Shown here one piece after another: positions 13,863 through 41,906 of a stretch of DNA of 64,000 nt. The stretch lies in the NCBI GenBank assembly GCA_964360965.1, contig CAYHYM010000003.1, forward strand, positions 29 through 64,028. The letters run 5' to 3'. The translations under genes and the position numbers were made by a program. The notes beneath the pieces were generated by a model. It saw only the letters and a program-made list of their open reading frames with translations, was not told where the DNA came from and did not search any database. This DNA is from an uncultured Gammaproteobacteria bacterium (GTDB lineage: Bacteria; Patescibacteriota; Microgenomatia; Daviesbacterales; UBA10151). The stretch's first letter is position 1. Each line of letters begins with the position of its first letter.

Positions 13863-13868
13863 ATTATG

Positions 13869-14507
13869 TCATTCTGAGCGCAGCGAAGAATCTAACTTTT
13901 CTATTAGTTCCCCCTTCTCCACTGACACCTGGTAAAAATTACAAAGCTTATTAGTTTTTTCTTTAGGTTTATCTAGTTCAATAATGATACAATCCCCGGG
14001 TGGAACTTGTGGATGAGGTGAGAGTATATGGGAAGCAGGATCAGCTAATTTTTTCTGATGAAAATTACTGCCAGAAGTTTGATATACAAAAACCTGTAAC
14101 TCCCCTGGTAAACCATTACATATCACACCACTTTCTAAACTAACCACTCCATTATTAGTAGGCGCAACCAATGAACTTGCAGTCATTCTTCCACCTATCA
14201 CTTTAAAAAATTCACCCAAACTAATATCTTTATACTCTATCACCGGTCCCTCAACATGAATCCTATTATCATTATGCTCATGTAGAATTGGTGTGCCAAT
14301 TTTGTTAGATAATCCCTTGGGGTCTATTAAGTCCACTTTGTTTCCGCAGTTCCAAATTCCAAAATCAGCATGCCAGTGAACAGGACCACCAGTAACAGAG
14401 GTTTGGTTTGTGGAGATGGTTGACCAAACAAGATAAGCTGTAATTCCCAAAACCAGCAAAACAATTGTAAGAAATAAAAAATATTTTAAAATTTCTCTTT
14501 TTTCCAT
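13869..14507 (-). CDS. Exported or membrane-anchored hypothetical protein with His-rich motifs and 4 Cys
   Basis: The track ORF extends to 14576. The probable start is the internal MEKREILKYFLFLTIVLLVLG (signal anchor). Motifs HWHADF and HEHNDNRIH. It is divergent from the P-type ATPase gene. Confidence 0.4.
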   Translation of the reverse strand: MEKREILKYFLFLTIVLLVLGITAYLVWSTISTNQTSVTGGPVHWHADFGIWNCGNKVDLIDPKGLSNKIGTPILHEHNDNRIHVEGPVIEYKDISLGEFFKVIGGRMTASSLVAPTNNGVVSLESGVICNGLPGELQVFVYQTSGSNFHQKKLADPASHILSPHPQVPPGDCIIIELDKPKEKTNKLCNFYQVSVEKGELIEKLDSSLRSE

Positions 14508-14557
14508 CCATTTTCCACTATACCATCCAGTACTTATGTAATACAATTTAATTTGTA

Positions 14558-17161
14558 GTGGAAAAGGCATATACAAAAACCGCTGAGCAAGTTATTAAAG
14601 ATCTAAAAACTGATCTTAAAGACGGGCTGACATCAGCCCAAGCCCAAAAAAGATTAGCACAATATGGCCCAAATGTCTTAAAAGAAGAGATCGGTAAAAA
14701 TCCTTTGCTGATTTTATTTTCCCAGTTCAGAAGCTTTTTGGTGATTATTTTAATAGTTGCCTCCATCATCTCATATCTGTTGGGTCATAGCCTTGACGCC
14801 TTGATGATTTTGGCCATTGTCGCAATTAATGCTGTCTTAGGCTTTATTCAAGAATATCGGGCAGAGGAATCCATCAAACATCTGAAAAAACTGGTCACTG
14901 CCAATGTCCAGGTGATCAGAGATGGCCGGTTAGTAGAGATTCCCCACTTTCAACTGGTACCAGGAGATTTGGTAATTGTAAGTGACGGCCAAAAAGTCCC
15001 GGCTGATTTAAGAGTAACACAATCCATCTATCTGCACCTTAATGAAGCACCACTGACCGGAGAATCAATTCCTGTCACCAAAGTAACAGACAGCTTACCC
15101 CCCAACACCAACATAGCTGATCAAAAAAATATGCTTTTTGCAGGCACCTCAGTCTCTTCTGGCAAGGGTATGGGGATAGTTGTATCAACAGCTATGAAAA
15201 CAGAAATTGGCCAAATTGCCCATCTGGTATCACAAGAGGTGGAACCAGAAACCCCCCTCAAACAAAAGCTGGATCGTTTGGGCAAACTTTTGGGCAGAAT
15301 TGTTTTAATCGTCGCCTCCTTAATTGCCCTGGAACAAATAATATTGGGTGAACCAGTTATTGAAGCTCTCATCTCATCAGTGGCCTTGGCAGTAGCAGCC
15401 ATACCAGAAGGCTTGCCTGCCATTGTCACCATCTCTTTGGCTTTGGGCACCAAAAGGCTTCTTAAACAACGTGCCTTAATCAGAAATTTGCCTGCCTCAG
15501 AAACCTTAGGATCAACAGAGGTAATATGTGTAGACAAAACTGGCACCCTAACAGAAGGAGAAATGTCTGTGAGAGAGATTTACGGCGCAAATATTCAAAA
15601 AATTCTCACTGTGGGGATACTTTCAAGCAATGCCAGAAAAAATAAAGACAGAATTATTGGAGATGCCACTGAGGCAGCTTTAATACAAAAGGCCATAGAT
15701 TCAGGACTGGATCAGGATCAATTGGATAAAAAATTTCCTCGAGTACAAGAAATACCCTTTTCTTCAGACAGAAAAATGATGACCACCATCTGCAAAGAGG
15801 ATAATCAATACCGGGTGACCAGCAAAGGTGCAACCGAAGTCATCTTGGACAAATGTTCACATATTGAGGAGAATGGCCAGGTTATACCATTAACTGAGGA
15901 GAAAAAAGAACAGATTTTAAAAGTTAATGACCAAATGGCCCAAGATGCCTTGAGGATTTTGGCTTTTGCCGAGAAGCGCATACACCTTGCAGGTGAAGAA
16001 AATGCAGTTACACCTGCGAGGTGGAAAGAAGAAGAGATAGAAAAAGATCTGATCTTTCTAGGCCTTCAGGGAATGATGGATCCACCAAGGGAAGGTGTTA
16101 AAGAGGCTATTGAGGTTTGTCAAAGAAAAGCAGGAATTAAAGTAATAATGATCACCGGAGATCACCTGTTAACTGCCCAATCCATTGCCAAAGAAATTGG
16201 TATCAAGGGGGAGAGCATCAGCGGTCAAGAGCTTGACAATCTTTCTGAAGAAGAATTTGTCAAAAAAGTTCAGGAAATTAACATCTATGCCAGGGTCAGC
16301 CCCACTCATAAAATTAGGATCATCAAGGCCCTAAAAGCCCGCGGTCATCAGGTGGCCATGACAGGTGATGGGGTCAATGATGCTCCGGCCTTAAAGGCTG
16401 CTGATACTGGGGTGGCCATGGGGGTTACGGGCACCGACGTGGCCAAAGATGCCTCAGATATAATTTTACTGGATGATAATTTCACCACCATTGTGCAAGC
16501 CATAAAAGAAGGAAGGACAATTTTTGACAACATCAGAAAATTTGTTAATTACCTGTTATCTTCAAACATTATGGAAATAATGGTGATATCTTTGGCTGTA
16601 ATTTTGGGTGGGGGACATTTGCCGCTTTTACCTATTCATCTTTTATGGATCAATCTGGTCACTGATGGGCTGCCGGCCCTGGCTTTGGGAGTTGATCCGC
16701 CCAGAGCAGACATCATGAGTTTACCGCCCCAAAATTTTAGGCAGCAGATATTGGGTGGTAGATCTTTAGGGCCTTTAACTGCCGTCAGTGTACTTTTAAC
16801 CATAGCTATCCTTGCTATTTTCTTTATCTATCAAAAAGATCCAATTTATGAACAAACCATGGTTTTTACATCCATTGTCTTTTATGAAATGTTAAGAATT
16901 ATTGCCATAAGGTCTGAATATAAACTGCCGTTTTTCTCAAATAAATTCTTAATCCTTGCTATAGCTGGATCATTAGCACTGCATCTTGTGATTCTTTATC
17001 TACCATTCTCTTTTGCAGGAGTAACATTGCAAGAATTATTTAAAGTTCAGCCGTTAAATCTTTTTGACTGGGTACTACTGCTTGGAATTGGCATCTTCCT
17101 TCTATTTATCATGAGAATCTTGGTCATTACACCTGTATTTAATTTTTTAAAAAAGCCTTGA
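14558..17161 (+). CDS. P-type cation-transporting ATPase, type IIA (Ca2+/SERCA-like)
   Basis: 867 aa. DKTGTLT, PEGLPA, TGDGVNDAPAL, 10 TM segments. Carries an in-frame palindromic insertion at 15983..16023. Confidence 0.9.
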   Translation: MEKAYTKTAEQVIKDLKTDLKDGLTSAQAQKRLAQYGPNVLKEEIGKNPLLILFSQFRSFLVIILIVASIISYLLGHSLDALMILAIVAINAVLGFIQEYRAEESIKHLKKLVTANVQVIRDGRLVEIPHFQLVPGDLVIVSDGQKVPADLRVTQSIYLHLNEAPLTGESIPVTKVTDSLPPNTNIADQKNMLFAGTSVSSGKGMGIVVSTAMKTEIGQIAHLVSQEVEPETPLKQKLDRLGKLLGRIVLIVASLIALEQIILGEPVIEALISSVALAVAAIPEGLPAIVTISLALGTKRLLKQRALIRNLPASETLGSTEVICVDKTGTLTEGEMSVREIYGANIQKILTVGILSSNARKNKDRIIGDATEAALIQKAIDSGLDQDQLDKKFPRVQEIPFSSDRKMMTTICKEDNQYRVTSKGATEVILDKCSHIEENGQVIPLTEEKKEQILKVNDQMAQDALRILAFAEKRIHLAGEENAVTPARWKEEEIEKDLIFLGLQGMMDPPREGVKEAIEVCQRKAGIKVIMITGDHLLTAQSIAKEIGIKGESISGQELDNLSEEEFVKKVQEINIYARVSPTHKIRIIKALKARGHQVAMTGDGVNDAPALKAADTGVAMGVTGTDVAKDASDIILLDDNFTTIVQAIKEGRTIFDNIRKFVNYLLSSNIMEIMVISLAVILGGGHLPLLPIHLLWINLVTDGLPALALGVDPPRADIMSLPPQNFRQQILGGRSLGPLTAVSVLLTIAILAIFFIYQKDPIYEQTMVFTSIVFYEMLRIIAIRSEYKLPFFSNKFLILAIAGSLALHLVILYLPFSFAGVTLQELFKVQPLNLFDWVLLLGIGIFLLFIMRILVITPVFNFLKKP
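15983..16023. repeat. Family-B 41-bp hairpin module (CACCTYGCAGGTG-AAGAAAATGCAGTTA-CACCTGCGAGGTG) inserted in-frame in the P-type ATPase CDS
   Basis: 13-bp perfect stem with 15-nt loop. 35 nt are identical to the intergenic copy at 40403..40443. Encodes RIHLAGEENAVTPARW in the cytoplasmic domain. Confidence 0.7.
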
Positions 17162-27727: not shown

Positions 27728-28750
27728 TTATTTATCCTTCATGCGCAAGACCGCAGTCACAGCTTTAATAATAGCCTCTTTGCCCAAGCCAAATTTTTCC
27801 ATTAGTTCACTGGGTTCTCCACTTTCTCCAAACCTATCTTCCACCCCTACTCTTTTAATTGGTACTGGATAATTTTCAGACAAAACTTCTGCTACTGCCC
27901 CACCTAAACCACCAATTATTTGGTGTTCTTCAACTGTTACTATTGCCCCACAATCTTTTGCAGCTTGTAGGATCGTCTTTTTATCCAAAGGTTTTAAGGT
28001 GTGGGAATTTATTACTCGAACACTTATTTTGTGCGATTCTAGCTCTTTTGCAGCCAATAGAGCCTGATAAACTAAAGGCCCACAGGCGATTAGACAAACA
28101 TCTAATCGTCCTGAGCGAACATCGTGAGTCGAGGGACCACCATCCCAGAGTACTTCAGCCCTACCTATCTCAAATGGCGAATCCTCTGTGGTGAATACAG
28201 GTGTTTTTTCTCTAGTAAATCTAAGATAAGTAGGCTTACCATTAAATGCTGCAGCAAGGGTGGCTTTCTTGGCTTCAATGCTATCACAAGGGGCAATCAC
28301 CATTATATTAGGCACAGCCCGCATGATGGCCATGTCTTCCAGTTGTTGATGAGTAGCCCCATCAGGACCAACAGAAATCCCGGCATGGGCTCCGGCAATC
28401 TTAACCGGCACATCGTTTATAGCAATGGTGGTTCTGATCTGTTCCCAATTTCTGCCTGGTGAGAAAGCAGCATATGATGAGATAAAAGGAATTTTGCCAT
28501 AATTGGCCATTCCTGCTGCCACTGTAGCCATCATTTGCTCTGCCACCCCAACTTCAATAAAACGATCAGGGAATTTTTCTTTAAAAAGAATAGACCTGGT
28601 AGACTCTGTTAAATCCGCACATAAAACCACTACCCTTTCATCCCTCTCTCCAGCCAAGACTAATCCCTCCCCATACCCTTCCCTGGTCGGTATTTGTTCA
28701 ATATCCTGATCAAATATTTTTGGATTAAGATGAGCGTTTTTGTTTACCAT
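27728..28750 (-). CDS. tkt: Transketolase, C-terminal subunit (pyrimidine-binding plus C-terminal domains)
   Basis: 340 aa, split-type transketolase B subunit. The partner N-terminal subunit is at 29636..30493. Confidence 0.9.
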   Translation of the reverse strand: MVNKNAHLNPKIFDQDIEQIPTREGYGEGLVLAGERDERVVVLCADLTESTRSILFKEKFPDRFIEVGVAEQMMATVAAGMANYGKIPFISSYAAFSPGRNWEQIRTTIAINDVPVKIAGAHAGISVGPDGATHQQLEDMAIMRAVPNIMVIAPCDSIEAKKATLAAAFNGKPTYLRFTREKTPVFTTEDSPFEIGRAEVLWDGGPSTHDVRSGRLDVCLIACGPLVYQALLAAKELESHKISVRVINSHTLKPLDKKTILQAAKDCGAIVTVEEHQIIGGLGGAVAEVLSENYPVPIKRVGVEDRFGESGEPSELMEKFGLGKEAIIKAVTAVLRMKDK

Positions 28751-28753
28751 ATT

Positions 28754-29260
28754 TTATCCCCACATATCTTTTAAAGCTGGAAATCTCTCAATATTTAATA
28801 AATCCATTAAAGCCAAGTTCCACCCAGTGTGTAATATCTCATGATCATTTAACCCATAAAGCATGGTAACTGCTGAAACTGGTTCTTGACTCCAAGGAAC
28901 TATAATAAGTTTGTTTGCAATATCATCATTAGAAAGTTCCTCTATCAGTTTTTTATCCAATTCCTGAAGTCTTTGTAATGCTTCTTCTCTGCTTAATGAT
29001 TTAAGGTTTTTATCATCACCAGAAACAAATTCTAATTTGCCGGTCTCCAATGCAATTACATAATCTCTCTCAGCTCCAATTTGATGACCCAAACTTTCCC
29101 TTATGGAGTCAGCTTTTCTGTCTGGATTATCAACCATTCTAAAATCTAGTTTATCTTCCGGAACTCTTTTATAGAATTCAATATTAATATTTCTATTGGT
29201 CAGAAACTGTGTAAGAAAACTTTTTACTTTAGAATTAGTAATTTTTTTAATTTCATCCAT
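28754..29260 (-). CDS. DinB/YfiT-like (DinB_2 superfamily) putative metal-dependent protein
   Basis: 168 aa. His at ~57 (ESLGHQIGAERDY) and H143/H147 (NDHEILHTGWN) fit the DinB_2 three-His/Asp pattern. Lies between the two tkt halves. Confidence 0.4.
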   Translation of the reverse strand: MDEIKKITNSKVKSFLTQFLTNRNINIEFYKRVPEDKLDFRMVDNPDRKADSIRESLGHQIGAERDYVIALETGKLEFVSGDDKNLKSLSREEALQRLQELDKKLIEELSNDDIANKLIIVPWSQEPVSAVTMLYGLNDHEILHTGWNLALMDLLNIERFPALKDMWG

Positions 29261-29280: not shown

Positions 29281-29630
29281 TTGTCATCCCCGCGCAGGCG
29301 GGGATCCATTTAAATGACCTGACTATATAAATCAGACCATTCTGGATTAAACTTATTAATTAGCTTCATCTTCCAGTATCTTTTCCATTTCTTCATTTGT
29401 TTCTCTCTCAATATAGCATCATTAATATTCTGATGCTGTTCATAATACACCAGTTCATGTACTCCATATTTTTCAGTAAATCCCTTCACTAAATTATTTT
29501 TATGTTCCCAAACCCTTCTTACCAAATTATCTGTTACTCCTATGTAAAAAGTCCCGTTTTTTCCGCTAGCCAGTATATAAACATAATATTCCATTTGTTA
29601 AGTGGATTCCTGCTTTCGCAGGAATGACAA
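29281..29630. mobile_element. GIY-YIG nuclease cassette bounded by ~27-bp hairpin-containing inverted repeats
   Basis: Left end 29281..29307 TGTCATCCCCGCGCAGGCGGGGATCCA. Right end 29603..29630 reverse-complements to TTGTCATTCCTGCGAAAGCAGGAATCCA. Each end is itself an 8-bp-stem hairpin. The element occupies exactly the gap between the tktN stop and the DinB-like start. Confidence 0.5.
29310..29594 (-). CDS. Stand-alone GIY-YIG nuclease-family protein
   Basis: 94 aa. MEYYVYILASGKNGTFYIGVTDNLVRRVWEH...KYGVHELVYYE has GIY/YIG and the conserved Arg/Glu. Confidence 0.8.
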   Translation of the reverse strand: MEYYVYILASGKNGTFYIGVTDNLVRRVWEHKNNLVKGFTEKYGVHELVYYEQHQNINDAILREKQMKKWKRYWKMKLINKFNPEWSDLYSQVI

Positions 29631-29635
29631 AATCA

Positions 29636-30493
29636 CTATTCATGTTCGCCTTTGATCTTGCCACCTAGTGTCCTTAGTTGATGTAGAGCTTTTTTGGCTT
29701 CCTCAGGATTTGGTGGCTTGCTATGCCAAGCTGGATTCCACTCCATGAAATCAACTCCTTTTCCTGGAATTGTGTGAGCAATAATCACAGAAGGTTTACC
29801 ATATTCAGATTTGGCATGACCCACAGCATCCGTGAACTCCACAATGTTATGACCATCAACATGCAAAACATGCCAACCAAAAGCCTCATACTTCTCAACC
29901 AAAGGCTCAAGCGGCATCACATCTTCTGTATGGCCGTCTATTTGAATATTGTTTCTATCAACTACAACTATTAAGTTTGACAGTTTGTATTTGCCGGCAA
30001 AAAGTACTGCCTCCCAGTGATTACCAGCATCATGCTCCCCATCAGAACAGATACAATAAACCCAAAATCTTTTTTTATCCATCCTGGCAGCATATGCATA
30101 ACCTGAAGCTTGGGCAAGGCCAGAGCCTAATGGTCCAGATGTTGTCTCAACTCCAGGCAATTTGGTTCTTTCAGGATGACCCTGTAACCTAGTTCCAAGT
30201 TTTCTGAATGTTTTAAGTTCTTCAATGGGAAAATACCCAGAATGAGCCATGGCCACATACCTGACCGGACAAATATGGCCATTGGATAAAAATAATCTAT
30301 CTCTCTCTTCCCATTCTGGATTTTTTGGATCATGGTTTAAGATATTAAAATAAAAGGCAGTGAAAATATCTGCCATCCCCAAAGGTCCTGCAGAGTGCCC
30401 AGACCCTGCCTCAAGGAGCATCTTGATAATATCCTGGCGAATTTCATTAGCTTTTTCCTCTAACTGGTGGATGTCATGACTTAAGATGGACAT
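29636..30493 (-). CDS. tkt: Transketolase, N-terminal (thiamine-diphosphate-binding) subunit
   Basis: 285 aa. GSGHSAGPLGMADIFTAFYF, GDG...N motif region CSDGEHDAGNHWEA. Confidence 0.9.
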   Translation of the reverse strand: MSILSHDIHQLEEKANEIRQDIIKMLLEAGSGHSAGPLGMADIFTAFYFNILNHDPKNPEWEERDRLFLSNGHICPVRYVAMAHSGYFPIEELKTFRKLGTRLQGHPERTKLPGVETTSGPLGSGLAQASGYAYAARMDKKRFWVYCICSDGEHDAGNHWEAVLFAGKYKLSNLIVVVDRNNIQIDGHTEDVMPLEPLVEKYEAFGWHVLHVDGHNIVEFTDAVGHAKSEYGKPSVIIAHTIPGKGVDFMEWNPAWHSKPPNPEEAKKALHQLRTLGGKIKGEHE

Positions 30494-36805: not shown

Positions 36806-38160
36806 TTAGTTAATCTAACATCCACTCTTTCCATATCTCTGGGAAAAAGCGAAGCTTGCCTGATATTAGAAAGGTTTAAGACGTGCATGGTAATTCTTTC
36901 TAAGCCGAAAGAGAAACCTCCTTCTGACGGCATGCCAAATTTAAAAGCCATCAAATACATCTCAAAATCTTTAGGATCCATCCCATGTGCTTTAATTGAT
37001 TCCACTAATTGTTTATAGTCATTAATTCTTTGAGAACCACTCATTATTTCAACCCCTCTAAATAGAAGGTCATAGCTTAAGGAATAATCCGGATCTTTTG
37101 GATCAGGTTTGGTATAAAAAGGTTTTGATTGGGTTGGAAAATGAGTAATGGTCACAAAATCGCAGTGATGTTTTTCTTTTGCCCATTTGCAGATATCGAT
37201 CTCATCCTGCGGAGTTAAATCTTTTTCTTTCCTGTTATCCCTTCCAAACTCTTTTAATATAACTTCCTGGGCTTCCCTAAGTGTCAATCTCGGAATATCT
37301 CCGAAAGCTATCTGTTCCATTCCAAGTTCTTTTAAAATATCACCACATCCATTTTCAGTTTGCTTTAATGTCTCCACTGCAACTTTTTCTAAAAGATCCA
37401 AAAGATCTTCAAACTCCACAAAACCTATCTCACAATCCATTTGAGTAATTTCCGATAAATGTCTTGTTGTCACAGAAGGTTCTGCTCTATATGCTTTTGT
37501 GATTGTAAAAACTCTTTCAAGGGATGGAACCAACATTTGTTTGTAAAGTTGCGGGCTTTGGGTCAAAAAGGCTTTATGACCATAATAGTCAACTTTAAAC
37601 ACTTGTGCTCCTCCTTCTGTAGATGAGGCGACAATGGTTGGAACAACAATCTCAGTGCAACCAATTTCTTTTGCAGCCTTTCTGAATCCTTCCAAAATAC
37701 TCGCTTGAACTCTAAATATTGCTTTAACTTTTGGATGGCGCAAAGTGAGAGAGCGAAAATCCAAAAGGGTTGGTAGTTGTAAATCCAAATCTTTTCCTCC
37801 CATATCAAACGGTAGCTCTTCTGCTTTTGACAAGATTTCCATGGAATCTGCAGATATTTCTATTTCACCTGTGGGAATATTTTCATTGACCAGATTTTCT
37901 GGCCGCTTGTTAACTTTTCCAGTTATACAAACTACATCTTGGGAGTGTAGGCTACCCACCTCGAAGGTGGGCTCTGACTCCTTCGAGGTAGATTTTGTCT
38001 GTTGTGATACTACCACTTGTATTAATCCACTTCTATCTAAGATATCCAAAAATAAAATCTTGCCATGGTCACGGCGGGTTTGCACCCACCCACAAACCTC
38101 AACAGATTCCCCAACTTTTTTACTACAATCTAGAATGAGAGTACGTTCCATAAATGTCAT
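36802..38160 (-). CDS. aspS: Aspartyl-tRNA synthetase, archaeal/eukaryotic type (class IIb)
   Basis: 452 aa. N-terminal OB fold, class II motifs, motif 3 GGFSFGLERITMHVL. Carries a Family-A in-frame module at 37955..37989. Confidence 0.85.
   Translation of the reverse strand: MTFMERTLILDCSKKVGESVEVCGWVQTRRDHGKILFLDILDRSGLIQVVVSQQTKSTSKESEPTFEVGSLHSQDVVCITGKVNKRPENLVNENIPTGEIEISADSMEILSKAEELPFDMGGKDLDLQLPTLLDFRSLTLRHPKVKAIFRVQASILEGFRKAAKEIGCTEIVVPTIVASSTEGGAQVFKVDYYGHKAFLTQSPQLYKQMLVPSLERVFTITKAYRAEPSVTTRHLSEITQMDCEIGFVEFEDLLDLLEKVAVETLKQTENGCGDILKELGMEQIAFGDIPRLTLREAQEVILKEFGRDNRKEKDLTPQDEIDICKWAKEKHHCDFVTITHFPTQSKPFYTKPDPKDPDYSLSYDLLFRGVEIMSGSQRINDYKQLVESIKAHGMDPKDFEMYLMAFKFGMPSEGGFSFGLERITMHVLNLSNIRQASLFPRDMERVDVRLTK
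37955..37989. repeat. Family-A palindromic module in-frame in the aspS anticodon-binding domain
   Basis: CCCACCT-CGA-AGGTGGG plus outer arms ACCTCGAAGG/CCTTCGAGGT. Encodes STSKESEPTFEVGS. Confidence 0.6.
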
Positions 38161-38182
38161 TCTGGCTTAATCCAGAATCTGA
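38156..38182. repeat. Hairpin GTCATTCTGG-CTTAAT-CCAGAATCTGA overlapping the aspS start codon
   Basis: Same GTCATTC...GAATC architecture as the GIY-YIG cassette ends. A similar string GTCATTCTGAGCGCAGCGAAGAATCT lies at 13869..13894. Confidence 0.4.
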
Positions 38183-40394: not shown

Positions 40395-40402
40395 TTGTAT
40401 TT

Positions 40403-40443
40403 CACCTCGCAGGTGAAGAAAATGCAGTTACACCTGCGAGGTG
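40403..40443. repeat. Family-B 41-bp hairpin module, intergenic copy (5' UTR of recJ, upstream of cca)
   Basis: CACCTCGCAGGTG-AAGAAAATGCAGTTA-CACCTGCGAGGTG. On the recJ mRNA the 3' arm GAGGTG lies 8 nt before the recJ ATG, so the SD is sequestered in the stem. Identical over 35 nt to 15983..16023. Confidence 0.7.
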
Positions 40444-40493
40444 TATTATATGGCAAATTGTACCATACTATGTCAGGGTGTAGAATTAAGCTT

Positions 40494-41906
40494 ATGAACT
40501 ACTCATTACCTAACGAGGTTAAAAATATTTTAGAAAAGTTTAAAAAAGCCAAATTTCAAATTTATATTGTGGGAGGAGCTGTCCGTGATCTTTTAATGGA
40601 AAAAGGGGTTAAAGATTGGGATTTCACCACTGATGCCAAACCGGAGGAGATTATAAAATTATTTCCGGAAGGTTTTTACGATAACAAATTTGGAACAGTA
40701 GGAATTCCTATAGAAGTGGGAAAAGACACTTTGGATGGTGGCAGGCTGAAGCGAAGCGTAATCCATGACTCCTCCGAGGTGGAAGTATATGAAATCACCA
40801 CCATGCGAAAGGAAGGAGTATACAAGGATTACAGACACCCAGACAAAGTGGCATGGACAGATAAAATTGAACAAGATCTAGGCAGACGTGACTTTACTGT
40901 TAATGCCATTGCCCTTTCCGTCATCCCGACAAATGTCGGGATCCAATTAACAGATCCATTTAATGGCCAGCAGGATATGAAGGATAAGATAATCAAAGCC
41001 GTGGGTGATCCTGGCAAAAGATTTCAAGAAGATGCTCTTCGTTTAATAAGAGCAATCAGAATTGCCACCCAGTTAGAATTTGACATAGATGAAAAAACTT
41101 ATTCTGCCATCAAAAAAAATGCTCATCTTTTAAAAGAAGTTTCCCGGGAAAGAATTCGTGATGAGCTCTTTAAAATACTTGCATCTGGCAATCCTCACTC
41201 CGGTATAGTGAAATTGAGAGAAACAGGCTTACTACAAATAATCTTACCCGAACTTGAAAGATGTTTTGGCATTGTCCAGGAAGGACCCAAACATGATAGA
41301 GTTTATGATATTGGAAACCATTCCCTGCTCACTCTTCAACATACACCGTCTACTGATCCGTTAACCAGATTTGCAGCACTTTTGCATGATATTGGCAAAC
41401 CGGACACTGTTAACACTGCTCAAGATGGCAATGTCACTTTTTACCATCATGATGTGATTGGTGGAAAATTGATTTTAAAAATTGGGAAAAAGTTTAATTT
41501 ATCGAAAAAGCAAAAAGATAAATTATACCGCTTAGTGAGATGGCACTTATTTACTGTTGATGAAAATCAAACAGACTCTGCCATCAGAAGATTTATAAAA
41601 AATGTGGGGTTAGATTATATAGAAGATATGATGGCATTACGTATTGGAGACAGATTGGGAGGAGGGACCCAAAAAGCTGTCTCTTGGAGAATGGAAAAAT
41701 TCGCTGATCGAATAAAACAAGTCCTTAAAAAACCATTCTCTATTTCTGATCTAAAAGTAAATGGCCATGATGTAATGGAAGTTTTAAAAATCAAACCAGG
41801 CCCCAAGGTTGGTGAAATCCTCCAAAAACTTTTTGAAGAAGTCCTAGAAGATTCATCTAAAAATAATCGGAATTATCTTATTGATAGAATGAAGGAACTT
41901 GGTTAG
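40494..41906 (+). CDS. cca: CCA-adding tRNA nucleotidyltransferase with HD domain
   Basis: Start at MNYSLPNEVKNILEKFKKAKFQIYIVGGAVRDLLM; the track ORF starts at 40395 inside the hairpin. PolyA_pol head GGAVRD, D..D, HD domain LLHDIGKP. Carries a Family-A/C composite in-frame module at 40748..40782 (GRLKRSVIHDSSEVEV). Confidence 0.85.
   Translation: MNYSLPNEVKNILEKFKKAKFQIYIVGGAVRDLLMEKGVKDWDFTTDAKPEEIIKLFPEGFYDNKFGTVGIPIEVGKDTLDGGRLKRSVIHDSSEVEVYEITTMRKEGVYKDYRHPDKVAWTDKIEQDLGRRDFTVNAIALSVIPTNVGIQLTDPFNGQQDMKDKIIKAVGDPGKRFQEDALRLIRAIRIATQLEFDIDEKTYSAIKKNAHLLKEVSRERIRDELFKILASGNPHSGIVKLRETGLLQIILPELERCFGIVQEGPKHDRVYDIGNHSLLTLQHTPSTDPLTRFAALLHDIGKPDTVNTAQDGNVTFYHHDVIGGKLILKIGKKFNLSKKQKDKLYRLVRWHLFTVDENQTDSAIRRFIKNVGLDYIEDMMALRIGDRLGGGTQKAVSWRMEKFADRIKQVLKKPFSISDLKVNGHDVMEVLKIKPGPKVGEILQKLFEEVLEDSSKNNRNYLIDRMKELG

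Follow-up and report, generated by a model that had tools for sequence, protein, structure and literature searches.

A GIY-YIG nuclease gene between inverted hairpins at the split transketolase junction of a Microgenomates bacterium: a probable SRM-ssn-SRM module of the Ssn family

The 64-kb stretch of contig CAYHYM010000003.1 analysed here (the window) belongs to an uncultured groundwater bacterium of the Microgenomates, within the Candidate Phyla Radiation (CPR, or Patescibacteria). Between the two genes of a split transketolase it carries a cassette of 346 bp, measured from GTCAT to ATGAC, in which a small GIY-YIG nuclease gene is enclosed by two outward-facing hairpins. We consider it very probable that this cassette is a module of the Ssn family with the layout SRM-ssn-SRM, whose protein would, by homology, cut single-stranded DNA (ssDNA) in the Ssn manner. 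The module would be an element like an insertion sequence (IS) or a REPIN, ranging from selfish to domesticated, that entered the tktN|tktC junction, has been exchanged there and gives rise to solo hairpins at other places in the genome. The parts of the cassette are the following.

29310..29594, minus strand: ssn-type gene, encoding a 94-aa single-domain GIY-YIG nuclease (Pfam PF01541 GIY-YIG, E 1.9e-13).
29603..29630, minus strand: SRM/NTS-like hairpin upstream of the gene, 5'-TTGTCATTCCTGCGAAAGCAGGAATCCA, loop GAAA, stem 29606-29613/29618-29625, GTCAT directed away from the gene.
29281..29308, plus strand: SRM hairpin downstream of the gene, 5'-TTGTCATCCCCGCGCAGGCGGGGATCCA, stem 29286-29293/29298-29305, GTCAT directed away from the gene.

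The GIY-YIG domain covers residues 3-75 of the nuclease, and Pfam revealed no other domain and no Y1_Tnp hit. Among the NCBIfam models there was only a sub-threshold match to TIGR01453, a group I intron endonuclease model (24.7 bits versus a cutoff of 56), and a search of PDB by sequence gave marginal UPF0213 and SLX1 matches only, with no solved Ssn structure. The characterised prototype of the Ssn family, SsnA of Neisseria meningitidis, has 94 aa and a single domain, GIY-YIG of the group cd10448 (Chenal et al. 2025, PMC11893778). SsnA recognises the NTS hairpin repeat exclusively in ssDNA and makes its cut a few nucleotides upstream of the repeat, is inactive on double-stranded DNA (dsDNA) or RNA and does not interact with RNA, and its cutting is abolished in the mutants Y6A, Y17A and E64A (PMC11893778). 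Four Ssn enzymes have been characterised, those of N. meningitidis, N. elongata, N. wadsworthii and Wolbachia pipientis, with ssDNA binding that depends on the hairpin and its orientation and with cutting close to its 5' side, and 42% of Ssn homologs have NTS-like SRM motifs on both sides (PMC11893778). The IS-like layout NTS-ssnA-NTS was remarked in the same paper, as a hypothesis only, and CPR or Patescibacteria are not mentioned there (PMC11893778).

A tblastn search of a plasmid collection (7.3 Gb) matched the chromosome of N. gonorrhoeae with 100% coverage (E 2e-25); this direct comparison with Neisseria was possible because two 2.17-Mb N. gonorrhoeae chromosomes (NZ_CP119140.1 and NZ_CP119142.1) are filed as plasmids in PLSDB. 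In the pairwise alignment with the 94-aa N. gonorrhoeae ORF (locus L178, 1501-1782), which is surrounded by NTS copies, 48 of 94 residues (51%) were identical without gaps (E 3e-36), and Tyr6, Tyr17 and Glu64 of the window protein aligned to the Y, Y and E of the Neisseria homolog. With this ORF as a stand-in for SsnA (CAX49033.1), the window protein lies within the homology threshold of the family (blastp E < 1e-10 with a query coverage of 75% or more), and its length falls under the limit of 150 aa for single-domain GIY-YIG members. The ssn gene is under strong purifying selection, with a dN/dS of about 0.03-0.08 against its homologs.

The preliminary description of this locus, made from the letters alone, had proposed that the ends of the cassette are inverted repeats of each other and that each is itself a hairpin with an 8-bp stem. 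The first of these proposals withstood statistical comparison: the arms 29281-29313 and 29598-29630 (33 nt, 79% complementary) were the top hit of the repeat finder, and the 28-nt cores of the two ends matched at 22 of 28 positions, against a mean of 17.6 (sd 0.7, maximum 19) in 60 shuffles of the region. Local hairpin detection bore out the second, with a perfect 8-bp stem and a 4-nt loop at both ends, and the ends folded as ssDNA with energies of -9.7 and -7.8 kcal/mol (z = -3.9 and -3.6). The two ends differ at six positions, and at two of these the stem shows compensatory changes from C:G to T:A. The GTCAT of both hairpins points outward, on opposite strands. The downstream hairpin is an exact match to the published SRM search pattern. 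Compared with the NTS consensus of Neisseria, CGTCATTCCCGCGMAVGCGGGAATCYRG, the upstream one agrees at 25 of 28 positions and differs at three, of which two form a compensatory C:G to T:A pair; its GTC and 3' C are intact. At least one hairpin thus stands within 500 bp on each of the 5' and 3' sides of the gene, as asked of SRM-flanked homologs, the 3' one by exact match and the 5' one through its likeness to the NTS consensus. Both hairpins are conserved across lineages, each with its own stem variant: the upstream one was kept in loci L085, L089, L090, L171 and L170, the downstream one in all homologs sited at tkt and in L170.

The probability that a chance inverted repeat surrounds an ordinary small ORF is practically nil. 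Only the AT-rich background speaks for it, and it is refuted by the shuffles, by the number of such motifs in the window (given below) and by dozens of homologous loci built alike. An action of the hairpins at the RNA level, whether as terminators, attenuators or mRNA-stabilising stem-loops of the tkt operon, with the nuclease standing beside them incidentally, is also highly improbable. The stems are stable, and both hairpins are probably transcribed since the genes of the region are co-oriented with short spacers. However, no T-run follows either stem and a terminator scan found none there. The non-palindromic flanks (GTCAT, ATCCA) lie on opposite strands, so that the two RNAs would differ, as a strand-specific DNA-binding protein would produce. 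The lack of interaction between N. meningitidis SsnA and RNA counts against such a role too, as does Rfam, which over the whole window found RNase P and one tRNA only and nothing at the cassette. An intron or another known RNA at the cassette was rejected on the same scan. PADLOC and a comparison with phage genomes gave no match for the cassette, which leaves a known defence system or a phage origin unsupported. A promoter scan at the cassette yielded one promoter-like site with its -10 inside the ORF, which was set aside.

The pairing of nuclease and hairpins extends well beyond the window. In a protein search 1795 relatives came up, the majority of them from CPR and groundwater metagenomes, and a metagenome scan and contig look-ups provided 75 non-redundant loci with enough flanking sequence. 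A perfect hairpin anchored by GTCAY was present on the sense strand upstream of the gene in 59 of the 75, on the antisense strand downstream in 51 and in both places in 43; the opposite orientation was found at only 10 loci per side. For the analysis of covariation, a circular set chosen for perfect stems was replaced by one picked by flank anchors only (GTC-N20-CCA). All eight Watson-Crick pairs were formed in 67 of these 80 sequences, and stem positions 3 and 6 covaried fully, as T:A, C:G, A:T and G:C. Because stems selected on their anchors alone pair and covary, the hairpin is selected as a structure and oriented by its asymmetric flanks, and an oriented hairpin of conserved structure is what a strand-specific ssDNA-binding enzyme requires. 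At several loci (L095, L101, L118, L128, L152 and L156) tandem arrays of units of 18-22 nt lie just outside the downstream hairpin of the ssn homolog; each unit ends in the 3' half of the hairpin (..GGGAATGACA) and look like stuttered half-sites.

The genes around the cassette lie on the minus strand in the order tktN, 94-aa ORF, 168-aa ORF and tktC, with short spacers.

29636..30493, minus strand: tktN, transketolase N-terminal subunit (Pfam Transketolase_N, E 9e-60; full-length alignment with relatives).
28754..29260, minus strand: DinB_2-family gene, 168 aa, outside the inverted repeats, in the variable slot between the cassette and tktC (Pfam DinB_2, E 2e-07).
27728..28750, minus strand: tktC, transketolase pyrimidine-binding and C-terminal subunit (Pfam Transket_pyr, E 3.9e-41; Transketolase_C, E 7.5e-31).

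Spacers of 5 nt, towards the tktN stop, and of 20 nt, towards the start codon of the DinB_2 gene, are left on the two sides of the cassette, in agreement with the earlier statement that it takes up the space from tktN to the next gene. The companion statement, that it is inserted between the two transketolase halves, was right as to the place but incomplete: the neighbour of the cassette is the DinB_2 gene and not tktC, and therefore two genes lie in the gap.

A scan of GTDB with TktN gave 80 CPR loci, with tktC downstream in 72. The two genes were contiguous or overlapping (gap of at most 97 nt) in 45 of the 72, including the closest relative, L005 (87% identity), so that the normal contiguity assumed in the preliminary description was found in most of the tkt loci compared; the other 27 had unrelated inserts of 270-3600 bp. 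None of the 80 GTDB tkt loci had a DinB gene at the junction, a feature unique to the window lineage. Without exception, the homologs nearest to the window nuclease stand immediately downstream of tktN and have the same pair of hairpins; their identities to it are as follows.

L085-88: 91%.
L089: 85%.
L171-174: 85%.
L175: 84%.
L090: 79%.

The cassette is therefore found directly after tktN in six lineages, the window and five others, and the TktN and TktC proteins of the other carriers are only 63-74% identical to those of the window. Since the closest homologs (79-91%) occupy the same junction in five other lineages, the cassette is a long-standing or site-specific occupant and not the product of a recent random hop. 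The genes between the transketolase halves vary among relatives: of the extra ORFs preceding tktC only those of L089 and L175 are related (E 1e-5), and the small ORFs of the other lineages are unrelated. Neither the loss of the repeat under statistics nor a uniform set of intervening genes in relatives, the two outcomes that had been named as fatal to the cassette, was thus observed. The cassette-free relatives (L005, L017 and others) have neither cassette nor extra ORF; in their place the stop and start codons overlap as ATGA. In L085/L088, L089 and L090 the cassette is followed by a decayed duplicate, 25-30 nt long, of the 3' end of tktN (z 3.5-6), which supplies the start codon of the extra ORF; the value for the window (z -0.1) is not significant.

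This recurrent siting calls to mind a free-standing GIY-YIG homing endonuclease of the Seg/Mob kind, which would break dsDNA at the empty tktN|tktC junction and be copied in by recombination repair. The same junction is filled in six lineages despite the low identity of their tkt genes to those of the window, the distribution on the TktN+TktC tree is patchy and polyphyletic, a distant GIY-YIG gene with terminal inverted repeats of its own occupies the same junction in L070, and the weak TIGR01453 match mentioned above points the same way. Yet the catalytic domain takes up all 94 aa of the protein, leaving out the DNA-binding domain that every characterised GIY-YIG homing enzyme has; the prototype SsnA is inactive on dsDNA; the 346-bp unit is also found at unrelated sites; the last 45 nt of tktN show no clear co-conversion tract in a comparison that is noisy; and Rfam finds no intron RNA. 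We therefore regard homing as very unlikely. The gene at L070 (4818-5227) encodes an 87-aa protein with 37% identity, and its ends form long-range inverted repeats (one perfect of 15 nt, one of 19 nt at 89%) with no local hairpins.

Homologs of the cassette with 78-82% identity were found in other gene contexts: between an aminoacyl-tRNA synthetase (aaRS) gene and a gene for an HD protein (L170), on the lexA side (L176), and between recO and an aaRS gene (L177). In a joint alignment of the four contexts similarity starts at GTCAT and stops at ATGAC, and the unit measures 346 bp in the tkt as well as in the aaRS|HD context, as expected from the discrete cassette with hairpin ends that had been proposed. 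In the closest relatives of L170, whose HD protein is 95% identical, the aaRS|HD site holds a gene-less type-2 hairpin doublet of 101 nt between identical flanks. In more distant relatives the site is an empty ATGA overlap or carries an extra HD gene, and the first 12 codons of that extra gene survive beside the element. The empty aaRS-HD junction of L182 differs from L170 by the cassette and a 35-nt remnant of another gene.

Divergence within the cassette is low. Between the window and L085 the nucleotide identity reaches 0.78-0.93 within the cassette, stands at about 0.67 for tktN and falls to 0.4-0.5 immediately beyond the right end; overall the cassette is 85% identical versus about 67% for tktN. 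The dN of the nuclease gene is 0.04-0.11 versus 0.10-0.26 for tktN and tktC, and for the pair of the window and L085 the dN is 0.044 in the nuclease versus 0.26 in tktN and 0.22 in tktC, with a dS of 1.6 versus 2.3-2.5. Identity at third codon positions, in pairs of the window with its relatives, is 0.63-0.65 for the nuclease versus 0.44-0.48 for tktN and tktC. On a neighbour-joining tree of TktN+TktC the window groups with L005, in a major clade other than that of the remaining carriers, which are themselves interleaved with cassette-free loci, so that at least four gains or losses are needed. The boundaries, the replacement at one site, the low divergence and the incongruence of the trees favour the view that the cassette has spread horizontally and prefers the tkt junction, and from these comparisons we infer that the cassette is, or has been, mobile. 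Loci L085 and L087 are about 40-60% identical up to a point inside tktN (near L085 3300-3330), where the identity rises sharply from about 50% to 100%; from there on, over the cassette, the extra ORF and tktC, the two do not differ. The switch may be a recombination breakpoint or a chimeric metagenome contig, and was not used as evidence.

Several points weigh against the interpretation of the cassette as an exchanged Ssn module. Its membership in the family passes through the homolog of N. gonorrhoeae, which is suggested to be an ortholog of SsnA by its length and NTS flanks, and the ssDNA cutting of the window protein is a prediction carried over from the characterised homologs. The upstream hairpin falls outside the strict published SRM pattern, because a compensated T:A pair replaces C:G. 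There is one copy of the nuclease gene within the window, four near-identical contigs show no presence/absence polymorphism of the cassette, and the dS of the nuclease is still large (0.7-1.6 for most pairs). Each cassette at tkt is accompanied by a variable extra ORF before tktC, so that filled and empty sites differ by more than the cassette, and the 40 loci searched yielded no regular target-site duplication, most of them having no direct repeat. Vertical descent under tight constraint with repeated loss may thus account for the distribution.

Given dS values that are not small, and given that the cassette is never the sole difference between filled and empty sites, an old insertion with repeated loss is a live rival. 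It would make the nuclease a resident, domesticated gene, fixed once at the tkt junction and inherited vertically, with the hairpins as recognition or regulatory sites and no present movement. The copies at tkt are near-monophyletic in the nuclease tree, the strong purifying selection would suit such a gene, and the decayed tktN 3'-end duplicates flanking the cassette in L085/L088, L089 and L090 fit it as well. So do the single copy in the window, the uniformity of the contigs with identical tktN, and dS values of 0.7-1.6 and above, which are not those of a recent event. However, the window tkt genes fall in the other major clade with many cassette-free lineages between the carriers, the cassette is far closer in nucleotide sequence than tktN, homologs with the same boundaries are found at unrelated sites, and one site is filled alternately by two different hairpin-bounded elements. 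On balance we hold simple residence to be possible but rather unlikely.

If the Ssn module is what it appears to be, the following course of events may be envisaged. The motif GTCAT-stem-loop-stem-ATC would fold when the DNA is single-stranded, as in replication, in repair or in incoming transforming DNA. The Ssn protein would bind the folded hairpin in a sequence- and orientation-specific manner and cut its strand a few nucleotides 5' of GTCAT. Because GTCAT faces outward on opposite strands, cuts are predicted in the spacers of 5 and 20 nt that adjoin the two ends of the cassette, one on each strand. The element would have entered the tktN|tktC junction and then been exchanged at that junction among lineages of Microgenomates, the unit propagating or being exchanged via single-stranded intermediates or by recombination at the hairpins. 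The solo hairpins and doublets elsewhere would be non-autonomous products or targets of the element, and the enzyme may also restrict incoming single strands that bear hairpins, as in Neisseria. More tentatively, SRM-ssn-SRM could be an autonomous mobile element driven by its GIY-YIG ssDNA nuclease, an analogue of REPIN/RAYT or of IS200/IS605. Such an element would move horizontally among Microgenomates, prefer tightly coupled gene junctions (after tktN, aaRS genes or recO), leave or mobilise gene-less doublets and solo hairpins, of which some lie in frame in genes, and mark a slot in which unrelated genes are swapped (DinB, small membrane ORFs). We consider this stronger proposal doubtful. 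The data on boundaries, site replacement and incongruence would be the first comparative support for the IS-like hypothesis of the 2025 paper.

Hairpins of the same kind were looked for in the rest of the window. The published SRM pattern is too strict for AT-rich stems and recovered one of the five copies reported below, so we scanned for GTCAYYC followed by a 5-bp outer stem and GRATY and compared the result with 300 dinucleotide-preserving shuffles. Five anchored hairpins were found, the two ends of the cassette and three solo copies, where 0.11 were expected; none of the 300 shuffles reached five.

40920..40943, plus strand: solo type-1 SRM hairpin GTCATCCCGACAAATGTCGGGATC, perfect 8-bp stem (-7.5 kcal/mol), in frame in the cca ORF 40395-41906 and encoding VIPTNVGIQ.
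38156..38179, plus strand: solo SRM-like hairpin GTCATTCTGGCTTAATCCAGAATC, 7-bp stem and 6-nt loop, overlapping the annotated start of aspS.
13868..13892, plus strand: solo type-2 SRM GTCATTCTGAGCGCAGCGAAGAATC, with a 5-bp stem, tandem G.A mismatches, a 2-bp stem and a 3-nt loop.

Copies of the same architecture had been announced at 38156 and 13869. The first is a genuine hairpin with a 7-bp stem, the second (at 13868) belongs to a separate subtype, and the clean copy at 40920 had been missed. In the alignment with solved CCA-adding enzymes, the loop at the 40920 hairpin is 5 residues longer. A hairpin in this position is reminiscent of the palindromic elements that Rickettsia carries in frame. 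For NTS, a location inside genes is reported for only about 2% of the copies (PMC11893778). The complement of the 13868 copy forms the last seven codons and the TGA stop (DSSLRSE*) of the ORF 13869..14576. This copy folds poorly under standard DNA parameters; its type-2 architecture is nonetheless conserved, and L179/L180, L047 and L058 have it too, with the inner 2 bp altered in a compensatory way. At 38156 the ATGAC that complements the GTCAT end gives a possible ATG start for aspS, and these hairpins sit on gene boundaries to which they contribute start or stop codons. Gene-less type-2 doublets, inverted and outward-facing, were seen in L179 (1393-1480), L180 (1338-1425), L047 (4838-4891) and L058 (2306-2381), and are similar to REPINs or to miniature inverted-repeat transposable elements.

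The tktN|tktC junction has other occupants as well. A Cys/His-rich membrane protein of about 80-115 aa (MHGNCKCPHHW...CCG...) is conserved between the transketolase genes in many genomes of Parcubacteria type (L023, L026, L031, L048, L049, L050, L053, L056 and L072). Further insertions, accompanied by duplicates of parts of the 5' end of tktC or of the 3' end of tktN, were seen in L009 (1601-1729), L010 (6218-6364, with a DUF3800 gene) and L058 (5911-6033). The junction is a recurrent hot spot at which insertions duplicate the overlap region. Records L005-L009 and others from GTDB have CPR-like tkt loci under the titles 'uncultured Gammaproteobacteria' or 'Candidatus Saccharibacteria', and these record names are probably unreliable.

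Among known systems the cassette is closest to Ssn/SRM (PMC11893778). Its hairpin motif is nearly identical (GTCAT-ATTCCnGCG-loop-CGCnGGAAT-CC), the gene is flanked on both sides, solo hairpins are found elsewhere, and the 94-aa single-domain protein shares 51% of its residues with the Neisseria homolog and has its catalytic residues at the same positions. It differs in its CPR host, in the T:A for C:G exchanges in the stems, in the small number of hairpins (5 in 64 kb), in the copy lying in frame in a gene, and in its single clean pair of outward-facing inverted hairpins, whereas Neisseria has clusters of mixed orientation. With REP/REPIN-RAYT it shares a single-copy nuclease gene between inverted copies of a hairpin repeat that is recognised as ssDNA (here by prediction), dispersed gene-less inverted doublets (L179/L180, L047 and L058) with solo hairpins, and the tension between domestication and selfishness. 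However, RAYT is a Y1 HUH transposase of the IS200/IS605 kind, and with a GIY-YIG enzyme no covalent tyrosine intermediate is expected. The 'peel and paste' elements IS200/IS605 also have subterminal hairpins that are recognised in ssDNA and cut a short distance 5', as predicted for the cassette, but both of their ends are on one strand and do not form inverted repeats, unlike the ends of the cassette, and the enzyme families differ.

The GIY-YIG homing endonucleases I-TevI, SegA-G and I-BmoI are similar in the catalytic domain, in a recurrent junction between essential coding regions and in patchiness. They differ in that the cassette encodes no linker or DNA-binding domain and is bounded by hairpin inverted repeats, which are absent from homing genes. 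The stand-alone GIY-YIG proteins of UPF0213/YhbQ type (PDB 1ZG2 and 1YWL), of about 95-107 aa, are the closest solved structures by sequence; they form a different subfamily, with marginal similarity to the window protein (E 0.0018 and 0.025), and we know of no association between them and hairpin repeats. The dRS3/NIME arrays and 'minimal mobile elements' of Neisseria (in part after the discussion in PMC11893778) offer a parallel in a slot marked by hairpins, with genes varying by lineage (DinB here) between conserved flanks. Here, in contrast, a single cassette stands beside the slot, there are no repeat arrays, and exchange by transformation is a supposition.

As the Ssn/SRM family was published in 2025, the cassette is not new in kind. 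What goes beyond that paper is the CPR host, the clean architecture, the conserved residence in a split transketolase and the comparative signs of mobility. The Ssn system of nuclease and hairpin is thereby extended to the CPR, with a recognition hairpin almost unchanged over a very large phylogenetic distance. The CPR loci are clean, with one gene, two hairpins and sharp ends, and occur in filled, doublet and empty versions of a site, and for this reason they provide a better natural experiment than Neisseria on the mobility of SRM-ssn-SRM. Recurrent odd peptide tails and starts in annotations (DSSLRSE*, VIPxxxGIQ) are explained as hairpin repeats that overlap coding sequence, and the new pairs of enzyme and hairpin are candidate tools for site-specific cutting of ssDNA. 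Since CPR bacteria are thought to depend on the uptake of DNA, a nuclease directed at ssDNA hairpins could shape gene exchange among them.

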